DNA of 64,000 nucleotides from a bacterium (GTDB lineage Bacteria > UBA8248). Below are positions 1 through 64,000 of the stretch, one piece after another; positions within the stretch are counted from its first letter, which is position 1; each line of letters starts with the position of its first letter. Location of the stretch: the NCBI GenBank assembly GCA_965261085.1, contig OZ253442.1, forward strand, positions 3,904,001-3,968,000. The letters run 5' to 3'. The translations under genes and the position numbers were made by a program. Below the pieces are notes generated by a model, which worked only from the letters and a program-made list of their open reading frames with translations, was not told where the DNA came from and made no database searches.

Positions 1-869
1 GGACGGACCCGGACGCGCGGCTGGCGAGAACGGGCGGGGGATTCGAGCCGAGCTACAAGCAGCACGCTGTGGTGGACGACACGCGCGGGGTGGTGCTCGA
101 CGTATCGGTGACGGAGGGTACGGTGAACGAGCGTGAGGTGCTCGAATCGCAGGTGGAAGCGGTATGCGAGGTATCGGGGCGCGCGCCCGCGATGGTGACG
201 GCGGACTCTGGCTACGCCTACTCGAAGGTCTACGCGGCCCTGGAGCGCCGGGGTGTGGCCGCGCTCATTCCGGCGAAGAGGGAACCCTCGCAGAGCCGTG
301 TTCCGTTGCGCCTGTTCCGCTACGACGCGCGGCACGACATCGTGAAGTGTCCGCGCGGCAAGATACTGAGCCCCCGTCGGCCCGCAAAGGGGGGGCGTTA
401 TTATCGTTCGAAGACCCGTGATTGCGCGGGCTGCGCGCTTCGCGAGGATTGCCTGCCGAAGGCGTGGTCGAGCAAGGTGGTGTTGGTTCCGCATGCGTAT
501 CCGGCGCTGTTGCGCGCGCGCCGGCGCCATGCGCGATGGAGGGAGGAGGAGCGGCGGATGTACCGGCGTCATATGTGGCGCTCGGAGGGCTACCACGGCG
601 AGGCGAAGACCTGGCACGGGCTTGCGCGCGCGGTGCGGCGCGGTCTTGAGAACATGAAGATACAGTCCTACCTGACGGCGGCGGCGATCAACCTCAAGCG
701 GCTCTCCGCCGCACTTGCTGCAAGGTTATTCGCCCTCTGGAGGGCCTGGTCGGCCCGGGAAGAGCCTCTGTGCGTCCATCGCGGCCTCGCAAGCTGCGCG
801 GGCTTCCTGTCCGCCGCCGCGTGACCCTCCATACCGCCCGCTCCCGAAACCGGGTTATTCAACAACCCC
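1..869 (+). mobile_element. IS1182-family insertion sequence, 3' part (cut by window start)
   Basis: Transposase ORF followed by right terminal IR GGGTTATTCAACAACCCC (852-869), whose reverse complement matches the left end at 63847 at 17/18 positions. Confidence 0.88.
3..824 (+). CDS. IS1182-family DDE transposase, 5'-truncated
   Basis: Frame open from position 3: TDPDARL...YKQH, ADSGY, CP.G and CxxCxxRxxC motifs, RxxxxEG..GEAK..HGL.RA..RG C-terminus. Confidence 0.9.
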   Translation, partial: TDPDARLARTGGGFEPSYKQHAVVDDTRGVVLDVSVTEGTVNEREVLESQVEAVCEVSGRAPAMVTADSGYAYSKVYAALERRGVAALIPAKREPSQSRVPLRLFRYDARHDIVKCPRGKILSPRRPAKGGRYYRSKTRDCAGCALREDCLPKAWSSKVVLVPHAYPALLRARRRHARWREEERRMYRRHMWRSEGYHGEAKTWHGLARAVRRGLENMKIQSYLTAAAINLKRLSAALAARLFALWRAWSAREEPLCVHRGLASCAGFLSAAA

Positions 870-928
870 AATGCGGGAGTATTTGTGTTTCTTACTCTTT
901 CATCGGTCGCGTCAAACCCTCGCTCATC

Positions 929-948
929 GGGGCTTTTTCAACAGCCCC
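929..948 (+). repeat. Orphan IS1182-type right terminal IR
   Basis: GGGGCTTTTTCAACAGCCCC, ending 79 bp after the IS right end; same motif as 3439-3456. Confidence 0.7.
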
Positions 949-2120: not shown

Positions 2121-3056
2121 TTGCTCAGGAGAATGAATGCGATGAGTCTCCCCACAAAGGTCGACATCGTCGAGGTCGGCACGCGAGACGGCCTCCAGAA
2201 CGAAAAGCAATACATCACGCCGGAGGATAAGATAAAACTTCTGGACACCATCACCGACGCCGGCGTTCGCCGCATCGAGGTGACGAGTTTCGTGAGTCCA
2301 AAACACGTCCCCCAGATGAGAGACGCACAGGAGGTTCTCGCAGGCTGCAAGCGCAACCCGGATACCGAGTATGAAGCCCTGGTTCCCAACGTCCAAGGCA
2401 TGGAGCGCGCTCTCGCGTGCGAACTGGACGGCGTCATGTTGTTCGTCGCCGCCAGCGAGACGTTCAACCAGAAGAACATACGCGCGAGCCGGGAGGAAAT
2501 GCTCGGGGTGGCCCGCGAAGTCGCTAAAATGGCGAAGGGAGCGAACTTGAAACTCAGAGGCGGCGTGGTCGCCACTTTCGGCTGCCCGTATGAGGGGCGC
2601 ATCTCGTATCAAGACGTGGAGTGGGTGGTCGGCGAATACGTGGACATGGGTTGTGAGGAAATCGGCCTGGCCGACACCGTGGGCATGTCGAACCCGGCCG
2701 AAATCAAAAGGCTCACTGAACATATACGCAACAAATTCCCCTCCGTCCGCTACGCGCTTCATCTCCACAATACCAGGGGATCCGGCCTGGCCAACCTTCT
2801 GGCGGGCCTGGAAGTCGGCATCGATACGTTCGACACCTCCATCGGCGGCCTGGGCGGTTGCCCGTTCGCACCGCGCGCCACCGGCAACATCTCGAGCGAG
2901 GACACGATCAACATGCTCCACGAGATGGGGATCGAAACCGGAATCGACCTGCCGAAACTACTCGAGGCCGTCGCTCATGCGGAGAAAATCCTCGATCGCC
3001 AACTGCCGGGGCAACTCCTCCACGCCGGAATCCCGGAATGGGAAATGGCGTCCTGA
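2121..3056 (+). CDS. Hydroxymethylglutaryl-CoA lyase family (DRE-TIM metallolyase)
   Basis: EVGTRDGLQNE, LADTVG, HLHNTRG, GGCPFAP; true start may be ATG 2133 or 2142. Confidence 0.92.
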   Translation: MLRRMNAMSLPTKVDIVEVGTRDGLQNEKQYITPEDKIKLLDTITDAGVRRIEVTSFVSPKHVPQMRDAQEVLAGCKRNPDTEYEALVPNVQGMERALACELDGVMLFVAASETFNQKNIRASREEMLGVAREVAKMAKGANLKLRGGVVATFGCPYEGRISYQDVEWVVGEYVDMGCEEIGLADTVGMSNPAEIKRLTEHIRNKFPSVRYALHLHNTRGSGLANLLAGLEVGIDTFDTSIGGLGGCPFAPRATGNISSEDTINMLHEMGIETGIDLPKLLEAVAHAEKILDRQLPGQLLHAGIPEWEMAS

Positions 3057-3182
3057 AGCGACTCCAGTGGATGGCGCATGAGCACTCCCGAGATTCTCGA
3101 CGGGCCACCCCGCCCCTCCCTCCTCGATAATTTTCACTCCCCCCCCTTGAGGGTCATTGGCAACTGATGAAAAAAGAATAAC

Positions 3183-3264
3183 CACTCCCCCCTTGAGGGG
3201 GAGTCGGTGAGCTAAGGGCTTAAGCCCGCAAGCGAACCGGTGGGGGGTCAATCCCGACCAAGGC
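3183..3264 (+). repeat. Structured 82-bp REP-like repeat, copy 1 (partial extra copy at 3135-3153)
   Basis: CACTCCCCCCTTGAGGGGGAGTC...GGGC-TTAA-GCCC...GGTGGGGGG; colinear copy at 63765-63846. Confidence 0.85.
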
Positions 3265-3456
3265 GGGGTTGTTGAAAAAGACCCCTTTCTAGAGAGTAGA
3301 GGGGACACCCCTTTCGACTGGTAAAAGCAACCCCCCTGTCCCCCCTTGTCAGGGGGGCTTTTCTTCCACCCCCTCGTCGGGGGGCATCGCCTTTACCCCC
3401 CTGACAAGGGGGGACAGGGGGGTTGCTCCCTTGACAAAGGCTTTTTCAACAGCCCC
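3265..3456 (+). mobile_element. 192-bp non-autonomous IS1182-type MITE
   Basis: Ends GGGGTTGTTGAAAAAG / CTTTTTCAACAGCCCC match the IS1182 TIRs; flanked by direct repeat AAGGC (3260-3264, 3457-3461); no transposase. Confidence 0.88.
3326..3427. repeat. Perfect 32-bp inverted repeat pair inside the MITE
   Basis: AGCAACCCCCCTGTCCCCCCTTGTCAGGGGGG (3326-3357) and its exact reverse complement (3396-3427). Confidence 0.92.
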
Positions 3457-3522
3457 AAGGCGGGAGGGATTGTGTTGTCTCCCCCCACTCCGGTCGGCTA
3501 CATACGCCGAATCACGGAATCA

Positions 3523-3541
3523 GGACATTTTCAACAGCCCC
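3523..3541 (+). repeat. Orphan IS1182-type right terminal IR
   Basis: GGACATTTTCAACAGCCCC, ending 85 bp after the MITE right end. Confidence 0.6.
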
Positions 3542-3680
3542 CGAAGGCAGGGAATGTCGCAGAAGCCGATCTCTTGGCGGCTTCTGCGCCGGTCGGCAAC
3601 TCCTCCCCGCCACGCCGGTTTTTCTTACTAAAATCCCGCCCGGCTCTTTCGGAAACACTTGACTTTGGGGCCCAAAGCTG

Positions 3681-3697
3681 ATTGTATGCAATATACA
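3681..3697. promoter_or_regulatory. Candidate GntR operator upstream of the decarboxylase operon
   Basis: ATTGTATGCAATATACA: near-palindrome ATTGTATGCAAT overlapping TGTAT-N5-ATACA, between TTGACT (3659-3664) and the RBS. Confidence 0.5.
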
Positions 3698-3713
3698 CTT
3701 CAGGAGACGCGCA

Positions 3714-5276
3714 TTGCCGCCCGATCCGAATCGACAAGACCCGATAGATGAACTTAAAGCGCTGACCTCCAAGGCGCAGGCGGTCGGCGGCGAGGCTTCG
3801 AAAGAGCGCCAGCACAAGCAGGGGAAGCTGACCGCCAGGGAGCGGATAGAACTTCTGCTCGACCCTGAGAGTTTTTCTGAAATCAACCTTTTCGTCGAAA
3901 CGCGCGCAACGGATTTCGGGATGGATGCACGGCGCTCCCCGGGGGACGGCGTAGTTACCGGCAGCGGATACGTGAACGGCCAGCTCGTCTTCGTGGCCTC
4001 ACAGGATTTCGGCTCCCTCGGCGGCTCTCTGGGAGAGATGCACGCCGAAAAAATCGTGAAGATACAAGAACTCGCCATGAAGGCCGGCGCGCCCATCGTC
4101 ACCATTCTCGATTCGGGCGGCGCGCGCATACAAGAGGGCGTTCTCGCGCTGCACGGCTACGCGCGCATCTTCCAGCGCAACACCCACGCATCGGGCGTAA
4201 TTCCCCAGATATCGGTGATTCTCGGCCCCTGTGCAGGCGGGGCCGTCTACTCGCCCGCCATCACGGACTTCGTTTTCATGGTCGATGGGTTGAGCAAGAT
4301 GTTCATCACCGGGCCGGAAGTCATCAAGGCGGTGACGGGAGAAGACGTATCCGCCGAGGAGTTGGGCGGCGGCGCGGTGCATAGCTCGACGAGCGGGAAC
4401 GCGCATTTTCTCGCCAAAGACGAGCGCGAATGCTTCGAGATGGTGAAAAAGCTGCTCTCCTTCCTGCCGTCGAACAATCTCGACGACCCCCCGACCTCCG
4501 AAACGCCTGAATGGCCGCCGGATGAGAACCCCGAGCTGGACGACATCGTCCCGGCGGAGGCCACACGAGCCTATGACGTTCGGGACTTGATCTCCAATGT
4601 TTTCGACGATGGTGATTTTCTCGAGGTTCACACCGATTTCGCCAAAAACATCGTCGTCGGGTTCGTGCGCTTGAGGGGGAAACCCATCGGCGTCGTGGGA
4701 AACCAGCCCACGCACTTGGCCGGCGTCCTGGACATCGACAGTTCGGATAAGCTCGCCCGCTTCGTGCGCTTCTGCGATGCGTTCAACCTCCCCATCATCA
4801 ACTTCGTGGACGTGCCCGGCTATCTGCCCGGCACGCAGCAGGAATACGGAGGCGTCATCCGGCATGGGGCAAAAGTGCTCTTCGCCTACAGCGAGGCGAA
4901 CGTGCCGAAAATCGCCTTGATCGTCCGCAAAAGCTATGGCGGCGCCTACATCGCGATGAGCGGGTTCGGCCTGGGCTACGACCGCGTTCTCGCATATCCG
5001 TTCGCCGAGATCGCCGTGATGGGTCCCGAGGGCGCCGCCAACATCATTTTCAGGCGCGAGATTAGCGAAGCCGATGATCCCGACAAGGTACGCCAGGAAA
5101 AGATAGAGGAATACCGGAGCCTTTTCGCCAAACCCTATACGGCCGCGAAACAAGGGCTCGTGGACGCCGTCATCGAGCCGCGCCACACGAGAGGCGCGCT
5201 CATCCGCGCCCTGGAGATGACCGCCCACAAGCGAGAAGACAGGCCGCAGAAAAAACACGGAAACATTCCGCTGTAA
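3714..5276 (+). CDS. mmdA: Acyl-CoA carboxyltransferase subunit (methylmalonyl-CoA decarboxylase alpha / PccB family)
   Basis: GKLTARERI, DSGGARIQEG, GPCAGGAVYSPA, DVPG, KKHGNIPL; TTG start after AGGAG; adjacent to OadG, biotin carrier and OadB genes. Confidence 0.85.
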   Translation: MPPDPNRQDPIDELKALTSKAQAVGGEASKERQHKQGKLTARERIELLLDPESFSEINLFVETRATDFGMDARRSPGDGVVTGSGYVNGQLVFVASQDFGSLGGSLGEMHAEKIVKIQELAMKAGAPIVTILDSGGARIQEGVLALHGYARIFQRNTHASGVIPQISVILGPCAGGAVYSPAITDFVFMVDGLSKMFITGPEVIKAVTGEDVSAEELGGGAVHSSTSGNAHFLAKDERECFEMVKKLLSFLPSNNLDDPPTSETPEWPPDENPELDDIVPAEATRAYDVRDLISNVFDDGDFLEVHTDFAKNIVVGFVRLRGKPIGVVGNQPTHLAGVLDIDSSDKLARFVRFCDAFNLPIINFVDVPGYLPGTQQEYGGVIRHGAKVLFAYSEANVPKIALIVRKSYGGAYIAMSGFGLGYDRVLAYPFAEIAVMGPEGAANIIFRREISEADDPDKVRQEKIEEYRSLFAKPYTAAKQGLVDAVIEPRHTRGALIRALEMTAHKREDRPQKKHGNIPL

Positions 5277-42368: not shown

Positions 42369-42444
42369 TGGCAGGCCAGGAGGGACTCGAACCCCCAACC
42401 GCCGGATTTGGAGTCCGGTGCTCTACCAATTGAGCCACTGGCCT
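42369..42444 (-). tRNA. tRNA-Trp(CCA)
   Basis: 76-nt cloverleaf AGGCCAG...CTCCAAA...GGTTCGAGTCC...CCA. Confidence 0.96.
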
Positions 42445-42482
42445 CTGAAAACCTTTATCCTGAAACGACCGCTTTATCCGCT

Positions 42483-43661
42483 CTACTCGACGACCTCTGT
42501 GACGACACCGGCCCCCACCGTGCGGCCGCCCTCGCGTATCGCAAATCGCAACTCGCGCTCCATCGCTATCGGCGTGATCAACTCCACATCCAGCGCAACG
42601 TTGTCCCCGGGCATCACCATCTCACGTCCCTCCGGCAGCGTCACCAAACCCGTCACGTCCGTCGTACGAAAATAAAACTGCGGCCGGTACCCGTTGAAAA
42701 ACGGCGTGTGCCGACCACCCTCTTCTTTCGTCAGTATGTACACCTCGCCCTTGAACTTCATGTGCGGCAGTATCGAGGCCGGCTGCGCCAGTACCTGCCC
42801 GCGCTCTATCTCGTCTTTTTTCACACCCCGAAGCAAGACCCCCACGTTGTCACCCGCCTGGCCCTGGTCCAGAAGTTTCCGGAACATCTCAACCCCCGTC
42901 GCCACCGTCTTGCGAGTGTCCGTGATGCCCACTATCTCCACCTCGTCCCCCACGTTCACGATCCCCCGCTCCACCCGGCCCGTCGCCACCGTGCCACGGC
43001 CCGAAATCGAGAACACGTCCTCCACAGGCATCAGGAACGGCTTGTCCACGTCCCGTAGCGGCTCGGGGATATAACTGTCCACCGCATCCATCAGAGCGTC
43101 TATCGAGGATGAGTCCGTCCCCTCCAAGGCCCGCAGCGCGGAACCCGGAACCACCGGTAGGTCGTCGCCCGGGAACTCATAGGTCGAGAGAAGCTCGCGC
43201 ACTTCCAGTTCCACCAACTCCAAAAGCTCCTCATCGTCCACCATGTCCACCTTGTTCAGAAAAACACAGATGTAGGGAACTCCCACCTGACGAGCCAGCA
43301 AGATGTGCTCGCGCGTCTGCGGCATCGGCCCGTCCGCCGCCGATACCACCAGTATCGCCCCGTCCATCTGGGCAGCGCCCGTTATCATGTTCTTCACGTA
43401 GTCCGCATGGCCCGGACAGTCCACGTGCGCGTAGTGGCGCTTCTCCGTCTCGTACTCCACGTGCGCCGTCGCTATCGTGATGCCACGCTCGCGCTCCTCC
43501 GGCGCCTTGTCGATCTCGTCGAACCCGATCTCCTCCGCCATCCCCTTCTGCGCCAGATGCTTCGTGATCGCCGCCGTCAACGTCGTCTTCCCATGGTCCA
43601 CGTGTCCTATCGTCCCTACGTTCACGTGCGGCTTCGTGCGTACAAACTTCGCCTTCGCCAT
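42483..43661 (-). CDS. tuf: Elongation factor Tu (tRNA-operon copy)
   Basis: Protein identical to 26260-27438. Confidence 0.99.
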
Positions 43662-43710
43662 GGCTTACCTTCTCCTTCTGATGAAAATTTCAAAAATTAT
43701 ATCTTTCGGG

Positions 43711-43737
43711 GGAGAGGAACCACTTCCTCTCTTTTTT
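43711..43737 (+). terminator. Terminator-like hairpin oriented antisense to the tRNA-tuf operon
   Basis: GAGAGGAA-CCAC-TTCCTCTC followed by T6. Confidence 0.4.
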
Positions 43738-43890
43738 GTCGTTCCCGAAAAATGCGCCTTTATACCCGCTCGACCGAAATCTTGTCTATAGCCAAAGGGG
43801 ATAATTGCGAACCCGAGAAATTCCAAGGCGTTTCGCGCAATTTACAGGATAATGCACGAATCTCGAAATTTCAATGAATTCCGCCTGCCC

Positions 43891-43966
43891 TGGAGCCCAC
43901 GACCGGACTTGAACCGGTGACCTCTTCCTTACCAAGGAAGTGCTCTGCCGGCTGAGCTACGTGGGC
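43891..43966 (-). tRNA. tRNA-Thr(GGT)
   Basis: 76-nt cloverleaf, anticodon loop TTGGTAA, encoded CCA. Confidence 0.96.
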
Positions 43967-44146
43967 TGGCTGAGTCACGGTCGTACGAATACCATTTGTT
44001 TCAGCCAGAGCAACCTCAGCGAACGATGAGCCCGGACATTCGTATCGGGCGGATAATACAGCTTATTTCGGCAAGAGCAACCCCGCGAGCCGAAATCCAC
44101 ACGAATGAAATCCATATCAAGAAAGGGCAAAAGCCTCGAATCATCC

Positions 44147-44222
44147 TGGAGCGGGAAACGGGGCTCGAACCCGCGACCCTCAGCTTGGAAGGCTGATGCT
44201 CTACCAATTGAGCTATTCCCGC
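44147..44222 (-). tRNA. tRNA-Gly(TCC)
   Basis: 76-nt cloverleaf, anticodon TCC, encoded CCA. Confidence 0.96.
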
Positions 44223-44268
44223 CTCTGAGTCCAAAGCGCCTGTCTTCGTCATCCGGGCGATTATCTTT

Positions 44269-44353
44269 TGGTGGGGAGGGGAGGATTCGAACCTCCGAAG
44301 GCTGAGCCGTCAGATTTACAGTCTGATCCCTTTGGCCACTCGGGAACCTCCCC
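44269..44353 (-). tRNA. tRNA-Tyr(GTA)
   Basis: 85 nt with long variable arm, anticodon loop CTGTAAA, encoded CCA. Confidence 0.96.
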
Positions 44354-44512
44354 GAAAACCGCCGTTCACCAAAAACTATTAAAAAAACCTTACAGAAACC
44401 ATCAATTCCCTGAACCCGCCGTATCCGCCGAATCCCGGACGGAGAAAACGGGAAACCCGGCGACCCTCCAGCCGGGTTCTCTCCAGCGAAGCTCGGGAGG
44501 CGCGTCCCGCCG

Positions 44513-44588
44513 TGGAGCTGGCGAGAGGACTCGAACCTCCGACCTGCTGATTACAAATCAGCTGCTCTACCAGCTGAGCTACGCCAGC
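44513..44588 (-). tRNA. tRNA-Thr(TGT)
   Basis: 76-nt cloverleaf, anticodon loop TTTGTAA, encoded CCA. Confidence 0.96.
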
Positions 44589-63764: not shown

Positions 63765-63846
63765 CACTCCCCCCTTGAGGGGGAGTCAGTGAGGTAAGGG
63801 CGCAAGCCCGTAAGCGAACTGGTGGGGGGGCAATTCCGAGCGAGGA
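63765..63846 (+). repeat. Structured 82-bp REP-like repeat, copy 2
   Basis: Gap-free alignment with 3183-3264. Confidence 0.85.
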
Positions 63847-64000
63847 GGGGTTGTTGAAAAACCCCTGACTCTATGATTGGATGTATGGATATTACGCGCC
63901 CGAGATGGGGAGGTCCCGAGATGTTGGGACGCAAGAACCGCGCCCAGATGGATTTGTTCATCACCGGATCGCTGGAGAGGTTGATTCCCGAAGATCACAT
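63847..64000 (+). mobile_element. IS1182-family insertion sequence, 5' part (cut by window end)
   Basis: Left IR GGGGTTGTTGAAAAACCCC followed by a transposase start. Confidence 0.85.
63921..64000 (+). CDS. IS1182-family transposase N-terminus (partial, not in ORF track)
   Basis: RBS GGGAGG; MLGRKNRAQMDLFITGSLERLIPEDH fits the L..LIP.DH start of IS1182 transposases. Confidence 0.82.
   Translation, partial: MLGRKNRAQMDLFITGSLERLIPEDH

Follow-up and report, generated by a model that had tools for sequence, protein, structure and literature searches.

A stretch of 64,000 nt from a bacterial genome (hereafter the window; C1:3904001–3968000 of the genome under study, G000) raised the question of how mobile elements come to sit at the same point of a dispersed repeat, and of what in that repeat their transposase reads. 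The first-pass annotation had described three insertions of IS1182-type elements into a structured repeat family, all at one position and in one orientation, and had proposed that a hairpin rather than the duplicated bases is recognized. Target choice by IS5/IS1182-type transposases is poorly understood, and IS1272, the only IS1182 case to have been studied, has been read as purely structure-driven. The question becomes testable in G000 and its relatives, where clean duplications mark more than 100 insertion events, empty sites are numerous and the target switches between lineages.

The 82-nt geometry that had drawn attention to the locus was reproduced: repeat copies start at 3183 and 63765 (both reading cactcccccc...), element tips lie at 3265 and 63847, each 82 nt further on, and an 81-nt alignment of the two 82-mers shows 87.7% identity (Table 1). 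The likeness between the sequences following the right ends of the first IS (870) and of the MITE (3457) amounted to 16 of 20 nt, or 58 of 87 aligned columns over around 85 nt, and excision of the MITE in silico restored a hairpin with 7-nt complementary arms, 4-nt spacers and a central 5-mer, as had been described. Next to each of the three elements in the window stands one half of a palindrome, and the central 5 nt of this palindrome are the duplicated target. Because the duplication lies inside the repeat, directly at the element tips, the events are insertions into the repeat. The claim of three events in one repeat family holds in that each tip abuts a palindrome half, but the first IS is not preceded by an 82-bp unit; its left flank consists of a MITE end and a short repeat variant. 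Nor does a single position in the 82-bp repeat describe the target, as this palindrome (hairpin B) was found in many contexts and relatives in sister genomes use the repeat's terminal hairpin. The hairpin loop, not the 82-bp offset, is the invariant of the insertion site.

Table 1 Mobile elements and repeat segments in the window (window coordinates unless marked as genome)
Feature	Position	Strand	Details
3′ part of a full-length 1,522-bp IS assigned to the IS1182 family	1..869	+	Whole copy at genome 3903348–3904869
Transposase ORF and right inverted repeat of the first IS	within 1..869	+	ORF up to 824; right inverted repeat around 852–869
Right copy of 5-bp target duplication, 4-nt spacer, right arm of split hairpin B	870..885	+	Duplication 870–874; matches left flank perfectly in the genome
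Hairpin-B half abutting a solitary 20-bp inverted-repeat-like unit	911..948	-	Half at 911–928, unit at 929–948 with tip facing right; sequence reading
Left remnant of CATT-stem-class hairpin B	3152..3158	+	Sequence reading; class present among empty copies; right half at 3542–3557
82-nt repeat unit	3183..3264	+	Terminal hairpin A 3184–3204, body, left arm of hairpin B 3249–3255, spacer 3256–3259, left duplication 3260–3264
192-bp MITE without ORF	3265..3456	+	Tips match IS tips over around 15 nt; perfect 5-bp duplication, 3260–3264 = 3457–3461
Right duplication copy, spacer and right hairpin-B arm, then end of another MITE type	3457..3541	-	Duplication 3457–3461, spacer and arm 3462–3472, tip at 3541; 21 BLAST hits
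Second copy of the 82-nt unit	63765..63846	+	Left hairpin-B arm 63831–63837, spacer 63838–63841, 5-mer 63842–63846; 87.7% identical to 3183–3263
5′ part, with left inverted repeat, of a variant IS (93% identity)	63847..64000	+	Right end missing; inverted duplicate at genome 775963–777383

The IS is 1,522 bp long, with tips identical at 17 of the first 18 nt and a single ORF encoding a transposase of 480 aa. This protein scored 356.1 bits against the NCBIfam model of the IS1182 family, NF033551 (cut-off 270), in agreement with the original assignment, and fell below the respective cut-offs of the IS5, ISNCY and IS4 models. Domains above Pfam cut-offs were PF05598 (DUF772) in the N-terminal part and PF13751 (DDE_Tnp_1_6) and PF01609 (DDE_Tnp_1) in the C-terminal part. 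The IS1182 family was split from the IS5 family, and its size range, which we take to be about 1.3–2 kb, accommodates the element. Judged by family model, domain make-up and the combination of inverted repeats with a single ORF, it is best classed as an IS1182-family insertion sequence. This DDE element has been active recently: BLAST recovered 21 full copies at 99–100% identity, which are hence recent, along with a 93%-identical variant in two copies that both lack the right end. Similarity of the variant at 63847 to the 1,522-bp IS ends near IS position 1411 of 1,522, with no right end after that point; the variant ORF continues beyond the end of IS similarity into unrelated sequence, and a segment of around 3.5 kb comprising truncated variant IS, gene fragment and full IS is present twice in inverted orientation (genome 773918–777383 and 3967847–3971312). 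A duplication flanks 18 of the 21 full copies (17 of 5 bp and one of 6 bp), with both target arms kept. The remaining three are chimeric through IS–IS recombination: at genome 773918, 2299527 and 3481852, the 5-mers to the left and right of a full copy are unlike, the arms there have opposite polarity and one flank is shared with other copies, all signs of exchange between ISs, for example by inversions or duplications.

To define the target across the genome, hairpin B was written as GT-stem7-GAyy-N5-rrGA-stem7, with a 7-bp stem and two pyrimidines and two purines beside the central 5 nt. Exact matches to the tip pattern number 145, rising to 182 when one mismatch is tolerated. When tips within 2.5 kb were paired, a perfect 5-bp duplication was seen at 40 elements (37 after removal of redundant ones). 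Hairpin B was present at 31 of the 40 duplication-flanked elements, and in all 31 the duplication was exactly the central 5 nt. Stems at these occupied sites start with CAA(A/T) and their complements end with (A/T)TTG, and the duplicated 5-mer has the consensus G-A-K-G-A. The two bases on either side of the 5-mer usually pair (CC/GG, CT/AG, GC/GC, GT/AC) and are flanked by GA/GA, so that the 5-mer forms the palindrome's apex. In exact register, a half-site was found at 91 of 182 tips versus 241 of 20,000 random positions (1.2%); of the other tips, 11 abut hairpin A, 2 abut a C-run hairpin and 78 were scored as ‘other’, many of these being near-misses of the strict half-site rule. Pairing at eight or more of 11 positions on each side of the duplication characterized 25 of the 37 rebuilt non-redundant sites versus 0.23% of random sites, and this palindromy signal appeared at shift 0 only, being lost when the assumed centre was moved by 1–4 nt. 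Among full IS copies, 19 of 21 abut hairpin-B halves and the other two abut degenerate look-alikes; the rebuilt sites match empty hairpin-B copies. By these junctions the element qualifies as a ‘type 1 association’ of a REP-targeting IS in the sense of Tobes and Pareja (2006), in which all or nearly all copies interrupt the repeat and the joined flanks rebuild it.

The proposed single orientation was not supported. At independent hairpin-B sites the left end of the IS lies beside the purine-rich arm in seven cases and is opposite in seven, one paralogous site has been entered in both orientations (1069706 versus 2088275), and the ISs at 772046 and 3636842, both in an 82-nt-type context, point opposite ways. 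Relative to replication, a hand count gave 11 co-directional and 10 head-on copies (skew extremes at 4.25 and 2.63 Mb).

Empty copies of the repeat, whose existence the original proposal required, were sought and found, at least 122 of them. A weight matrix (PWM) trained on occupied sites returned 122 hairpin-B sites at 25 bits or more versus none in a shuffled genome, with a motif of 27–31 bp, and a loose regular expression returned 45 uninterrupted copies versus 0–5 in shuffled genomes, 27 of the 45 with perfect stems. A generic census of any 7-bp stem with a 13-nt loop was dropped as unspecific (669 sites versus 334 in a shuffled genome). The stems of empty copies covary around a conserved loop (CAATCCC/GGGATTG, GAATTCC/GGAATTC, CGAACGC/GCGTTCG, CAGCCCC/GGGGCTG). 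Uninterrupted hairpin B follows some copies of the 82-nt unit, and near genome 763,400 there is an empty paralogue of the window MITE site itself, with the same arms, the 5-mer present once and 92% identity of the right-hand sequence over 85 nt. These copies bear on whether the arms might belong to the mobile element and move with it, as might be imagined from some MITE types whose ends contain a copy of the 82-nt unit or half a hairpin B and from the window host copies, which seem to lie inside older elements. However, the duplication falls between arm and tip in every case, so the arms do not travel with the insertions; arms and spacers differ among copies of an identical IS, and uninterrupted copies carry a single 5-mer. 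The related idea that most targets are carried inside MITEs was also rejected, as only 5 of the 122 empty hairpins fall within a tip-to-tip interval of 450 bp or less. We regard travelling arms as scarcely credible.

Beyond hairpin B, the 82-nt unit gave 114 BLAST hits in the genome, most of them over positions 1–65 and often as inverted pairs around 100 bp apart. Full copies of this family are composites of around 170–190 bp that form imperfect palindromes: hairpin A (ACTCCCCCC-TTGA-GGGGGAGT) stands at both ends, and the other parts are two internal modules, a stem GGTGGGGGG...CCCCCCACC and, in the middle, hairpin B or else AT-rich sequence. One composite (genome 706660–706860) is predicted to fold as single-stranded DNA at -55 kcal/mol (z -6.6). 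An Rfam search returned no family covering the repeat, the only hits in the window being five tRNAs, which form a cluster on the minus strand at 42369–44588 (Trp, Thr, Gly, Tyr, Thr). A search for a Y1/RAYT transposase (PF01797) found no match in the genome, whereas control genomes responded. We therefore call the repeat ‘REP-like’, noting that not every REP family has such a transposase; hairpin B has the palindrome size (20–40 bp), high copy number and dispersal expected of REP/BIME sequences. In two sister genomes, G002 and G021, hairpin B is of two fixed types (CAAACGC and CAAAACC stems) and occurs as dozens of pairs 61 bp apart on opposite strands, an arrangement that is either BIME-like or another composite repeat.

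The repeat copies that host insertions in the window seem themselves to lie within older elements of this kind; the insertions would thus be nested. Near-full-length copies of the 192-bp MITE number 14 in the genome, and 11 of these reach at least 95% identity. Short, ORF-less and multicopy, with IS-like tips and a 5-bp duplication, it is classed as a MITE derived from the 1,522-bp IS and would be mobilized by the transposase of that IS. The unit at 911–948 is probably the right end of an older MITE of around 295 bp that hosts the first IS, spanning genome 3903132 to window 948; its left tip lies at genome 3903132 and its flanks are near-duplicated. Likewise, the block at 3159–3541, in which the MITE lies together with the 82-nt unit and the hairpin of that unit, resembles an earlier insertion whose left end has been damaged. 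The tip on its right side, at 3541, is adjacent to a right half of hairpin B of the CATT class (3542–3557; left remnant at 3152–3158), several of the 21 BLAST hits to 3457..3541 are ends of 286–317-bp MITEs flanked by duplications, and joints in contigs from public runs are weakly consistent with an older insertion. A degenerate tip-like sequence is present at 3159–3176, and the left junction of the block lacks around 7–11 nt. Positions 3121–3160 hold a short repeat variant in which the left half of hairpin A is fused straight to hairpin B (cactcccc...ttgagg-GTCA...); the same fusion flanks insertions at genome 310418, 1608242, 2085196 and 3017031. Solitary 20-bp units, consisting of one inverted repeat (GGGG...CCCC) set against a hairpin-B half and 5-mer with the tip facing away, were seen at window 929–948 and genome 1608521, 3672430 and 3646942, and several of the 286–317-bp MITEs end in the same way; such units are either a MITE end with a captured half target or a footprint.

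Part of the region 2700–4100 was present in 17 public runs, mostly labelled as sponge metagenomes. Allele-bridging contigs were sought in four of the 17, where contigs fragment at the repeats and none spanned an empty or filled allele with at least 31 letters on both sides beyond the MITE-flank junctions; the short-sided joints in those runs probably come from paralogues. Hairpin repeats and nested MITEs explain the local clutter in assembly and annotation, and mark sites of IS-mediated rearrangement in these genomes.

What distinguishes used from unused copies of the palindrome? A tip lies at the exact distance from 32 of 122 good left halves. Where the left half was good, a pairing right arm was present at 18 of 21 distinct occupied sites versus 22 of 90 empty ones (p = 3e-7), counts that include paralogous and possibly non-independent sites. 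Both arms of the palindrome are needed for targeting, which, with insertion at single-nucleotide precision in the palindrome centre, upholds the original view that the determinants lie outside the duplicated bases. Three occupied sites with poor right arms (4–5 of 7 pairs), including that of the window's own IS (870..885), whose arms pair at only 5 of 7 positions, indicate that symmetry is not absolute. Stem sequence mattered as well. Under a stem-agnostic definition (186 empty sites, of which around 58 are expected by chance, and 20 occupied), CAA[AT] stems were occupied at 19 sites and empty at 42, whereas all other stems were occupied once and empty 136 times (p = 3e-10), a ratio that overstates intrinsic preference, insertions in genes having been lost. 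CAAA stems were preferred over CAAT (p = 0.006), and a loop class with TT/AT closing pairs was empty at 19 sites and occupied at none. The stems of used sites covary too (CAAACGC, CAATCCC, CAATTCC and CAATCGC with matching partners), although a reader of structure would tolerate the same.

These data can be set against a purely structural reading, in which an extruded cruciform or a hairpin of single-stranded DNA, formed at the replication fork for instance, is what the transposase binds before joining the element at the two loop–stem junctions regardless of sequence. Such a mechanism would match pathway c of the model proposed for IS1272, which targets hairpins without a sequence consensus according to PMC4923244 and PMC5678879; it would also account for the roughly tenfold rise in occupancy conferred by a pairing partner arm, for the use of all stems with compensatory partners within the CAA class, and for the finding that, within the clade, no fewer than three unrelated palindromes have their apical 5 nt duplicated. 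However, stems of other classes with identical geometry and loop (GAAT, CATT, CGAA, CAGC, CAAG, CAGT) were empty at around 60 sites and occupied at none. The genome has 86 intact copies of hairpin A and 60 hairpin-C-like sites, yet none of the 21 full IS copies lies in one and only small MITEs were found there, even though hairpin A is the stabler structure: its predicted single-stranded folds gave z-scores of -2.4 and -3.8 (window copy 3184–3204: -10.9 kcal/mol, z -3.8), whereas those of four empty hairpin-B copies (z -0.06 to -1.24) were no better than shuffles. The absence of a replication-direction bias also speaks against it. Together with the consensus of the duplicated 5-mer, these observations run counter to the proposal that a hairpin is recognized rather than bases. 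They argue for recognition that is not purely structural and may combine symmetry with arm sequence; recognition by structure alone, the main rival reading, we consider unlikely.

The same counts address survivorship, that is, the possibility that the element has no preference beyond a weak Y-N5-R rule and that hairpin repeats are simply the only neutral landing places. The hairpin sites within the window do lie between ORFs, and partnerless half-sites are often in unique sequence that is possibly coding. Selection, however, cannot account for all 31 motif-borne insertions falling on the central five positions of the motif, nor can it exclude hairpins A and C and non-CAA hairpin B, which would be equally intergenic; the copies are 99–100% identical and hence recent, and where a good left half is joined by a pairing right arm, 18 sites are occupied and 22 empty. 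Survivorship as the whole explanation is highly improbable.

Relatives of the transposase at 73–80% identity were detected in 13 of 22 congeners searched and in two genomes of the same class, and their junctions were read at 74 copies in 11 genomes, sampled from those listed. Perfect 5-bp duplications flank 49 of the 74 copies. Halves of hairpin A or hairpin C abut 66, and hairpin B none; the duplications are TTGAG/CTCAA of hairpin A at 26 copies and TTGTC/GACAA of the C-run/G-run hairpin C at 13. Hairpin B is nonetheless available to these relatives, with 38–87 strict matches in each of five sister genomes searched versus 32 in G000 (reversed-pattern control, 0), and the CAAACGC type is abundant in the five sister genomes and nearly exhausted in G000. 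Another lineage of the IS, the third (73% identity), represented by a degraded copy at G000 2401687–2403219 and by copies in two class-level genomes, sits in the palindrome CCG-ATGAT-CGG (general form CCG-N5-CGG). It interrupts an ORF (genome 2400600–2404200) with homologous flanks in the two class-level genomes; the flanks of the ORF (HDLRHSFAS...GESLPM / GKLLGH...TTARYAH) resemble box II of tyrosine recombinases, and a Pfam search of the flanking gene fragments gave no hit. As relatives use hairpin A or C and never B, target choice is lineage-specific. From these junctions, the clade appears always to cut at a palindrome centre, the palindrome differing by lineage. It is possible, albeit doubtful, that this IS1182 clade (73–93% identity) has switched its target among at least three unrelated palindrome families while the 5-bp cut stayed on the palindrome centre throughout, with specificity residing in a small, swappable part of the transposase that would contact bases around one helical turn away from the cut. 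If true, the clade would form a natural series in which to map, and perhaps re-aim, target selection of IS5/IS1182-type DDE transposases, and MITEs carrying a target would seed new landing sites for kin elements.

The lineage comparison also weighs on tip mimicry, in which the palindrome resembles two abutted inverted-repeat ends, so that the end-binding domain also selects the target, as in IS30 and some IS3-family elements. Compared by eye, the IS tip (final 12 nt) and the preferred arm (the 12 nt leading to the cut) agree at 6 of 12 positions in register (TCAA-type and CC motifs), CAAA matches one position better than CAAT, in parallel with the order of occupancy, and in the relatives the T-rich flank and C run of hairpin A match 10 of 15 nt of their tip. 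Nevertheless, the likeness is low and partly one base out of register, and the tips of the G000 IS and its relatives differ little, whereas their targets differ completely. We judge mimicry improbable.

The IS, and MITEs with the same tips, insert by 5-bp staggered strand transfer exactly at the centre of the REP-like hairpin B. We consider it probable that they do so by recognizing a symmetric target. In this model, the transpososome would read a two-fold symmetric target of around 27–31 bp with sequence determinants in both arms (CAA...TTG), 9–11 bp outside the cuts or about one helical turn away. The weakest part of the model concerns the state of the DNA: the target is most likely read as a duplex, and a transiently extruded or single-stranded hairpin may contribute. 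With targets that are intergenic repeats, as in the window, insertions would be tolerated, accumulate and nest in one another.

Symmetric targets centred on a staggered cut are familiar from other DDE elements, including IS231 (GGG-N5-CCC), the IS30 hot spot and Tn10, whose palindromic consensus sequences, like the target described here, fit a two-fold symmetric transpososome acting on duplex DNA. Unlike in these systems, the determinants in G000 reach around 13 bp on each side, and the target is a dispersed repeat with more than 100 copies. The closest relative in behaviour is IS1272/TnSha1 of staphylococci, also of the IS1182 family, which according to PMC4923244 and PMC5678879 targets inverted repeats or hairpins and enters the same site repeatedly and in both orientations. 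As described there, IS1272 deletes all or part of the stem-loop, makes no target duplication and shows no primary-sequence preference, whereas the G000 IS keeps the palindrome as two halves, generates a 5-bp duplication, uses a single repeat family and is sensitive to stem sequence. Stem-loop replacement of the IS1272 type was not seen for the G000 IS, given the duplication at 18 of 21 copies and the retention of both arms. The model in PMC5678879 does include a ‘loop-only duplication’ pathway that matches the pattern in G000, and both papers cite a review according to which some IS1182 members target palindromes.

REP-targeting elements provide the second comparison. IS1397 and ISKpn1 of the IS3 family, found in the palindromic units of enterobacterial BIMEs, are likewise DDE-type ISs specific to resident extragenic palindromes. 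They insert into the loop with a short duplication. They differ from the G000 IS in family, in having two ORFs with a frameshift and in the RAYT association of their REPs, no Y1 transposase having been found in G000; experimental evidence that the transposase sets their specificity is cited in PMC1525189. The REP-specific ISs of the IS110 family encode DEDD recombinases and lack both typical inverted repeats and the duplications left by staggered cuts, whereas the G000 IS is a DDE element with inverted repeats and a 5-bp duplication. Target choice in the IS110 family is guided by RNA. All or most copies of its members IS621, ISPpu9, ISPpu10 and ISPa11 lie, as here, at one REP position (PMC1525189, PMC12288879). 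The survey by Tobes and Pareja (PMC1525189) describes REP targeting in five families (IS3, IS110, IS4, IS256 and IS5) and lists no IS1182-family case. ISRm22, ISNm1106 and ISRm5 (IS4, IS5 and IS256 families) are REP-associated there, as the G000 IS is associated with its REP-like repeat, but the IS5 member shows only a partial association (4 of 7 and 7 of 14 copies), compared with 19–21 of 21 for the G000 IS. A literature search over titles, abstracts and passages returned no report of an IS1182-family element in REP-like repeats. Hairpin targeting by IS1272 and REP-targeting ISs were thus known already, and the G000 IS adds a clear further example.
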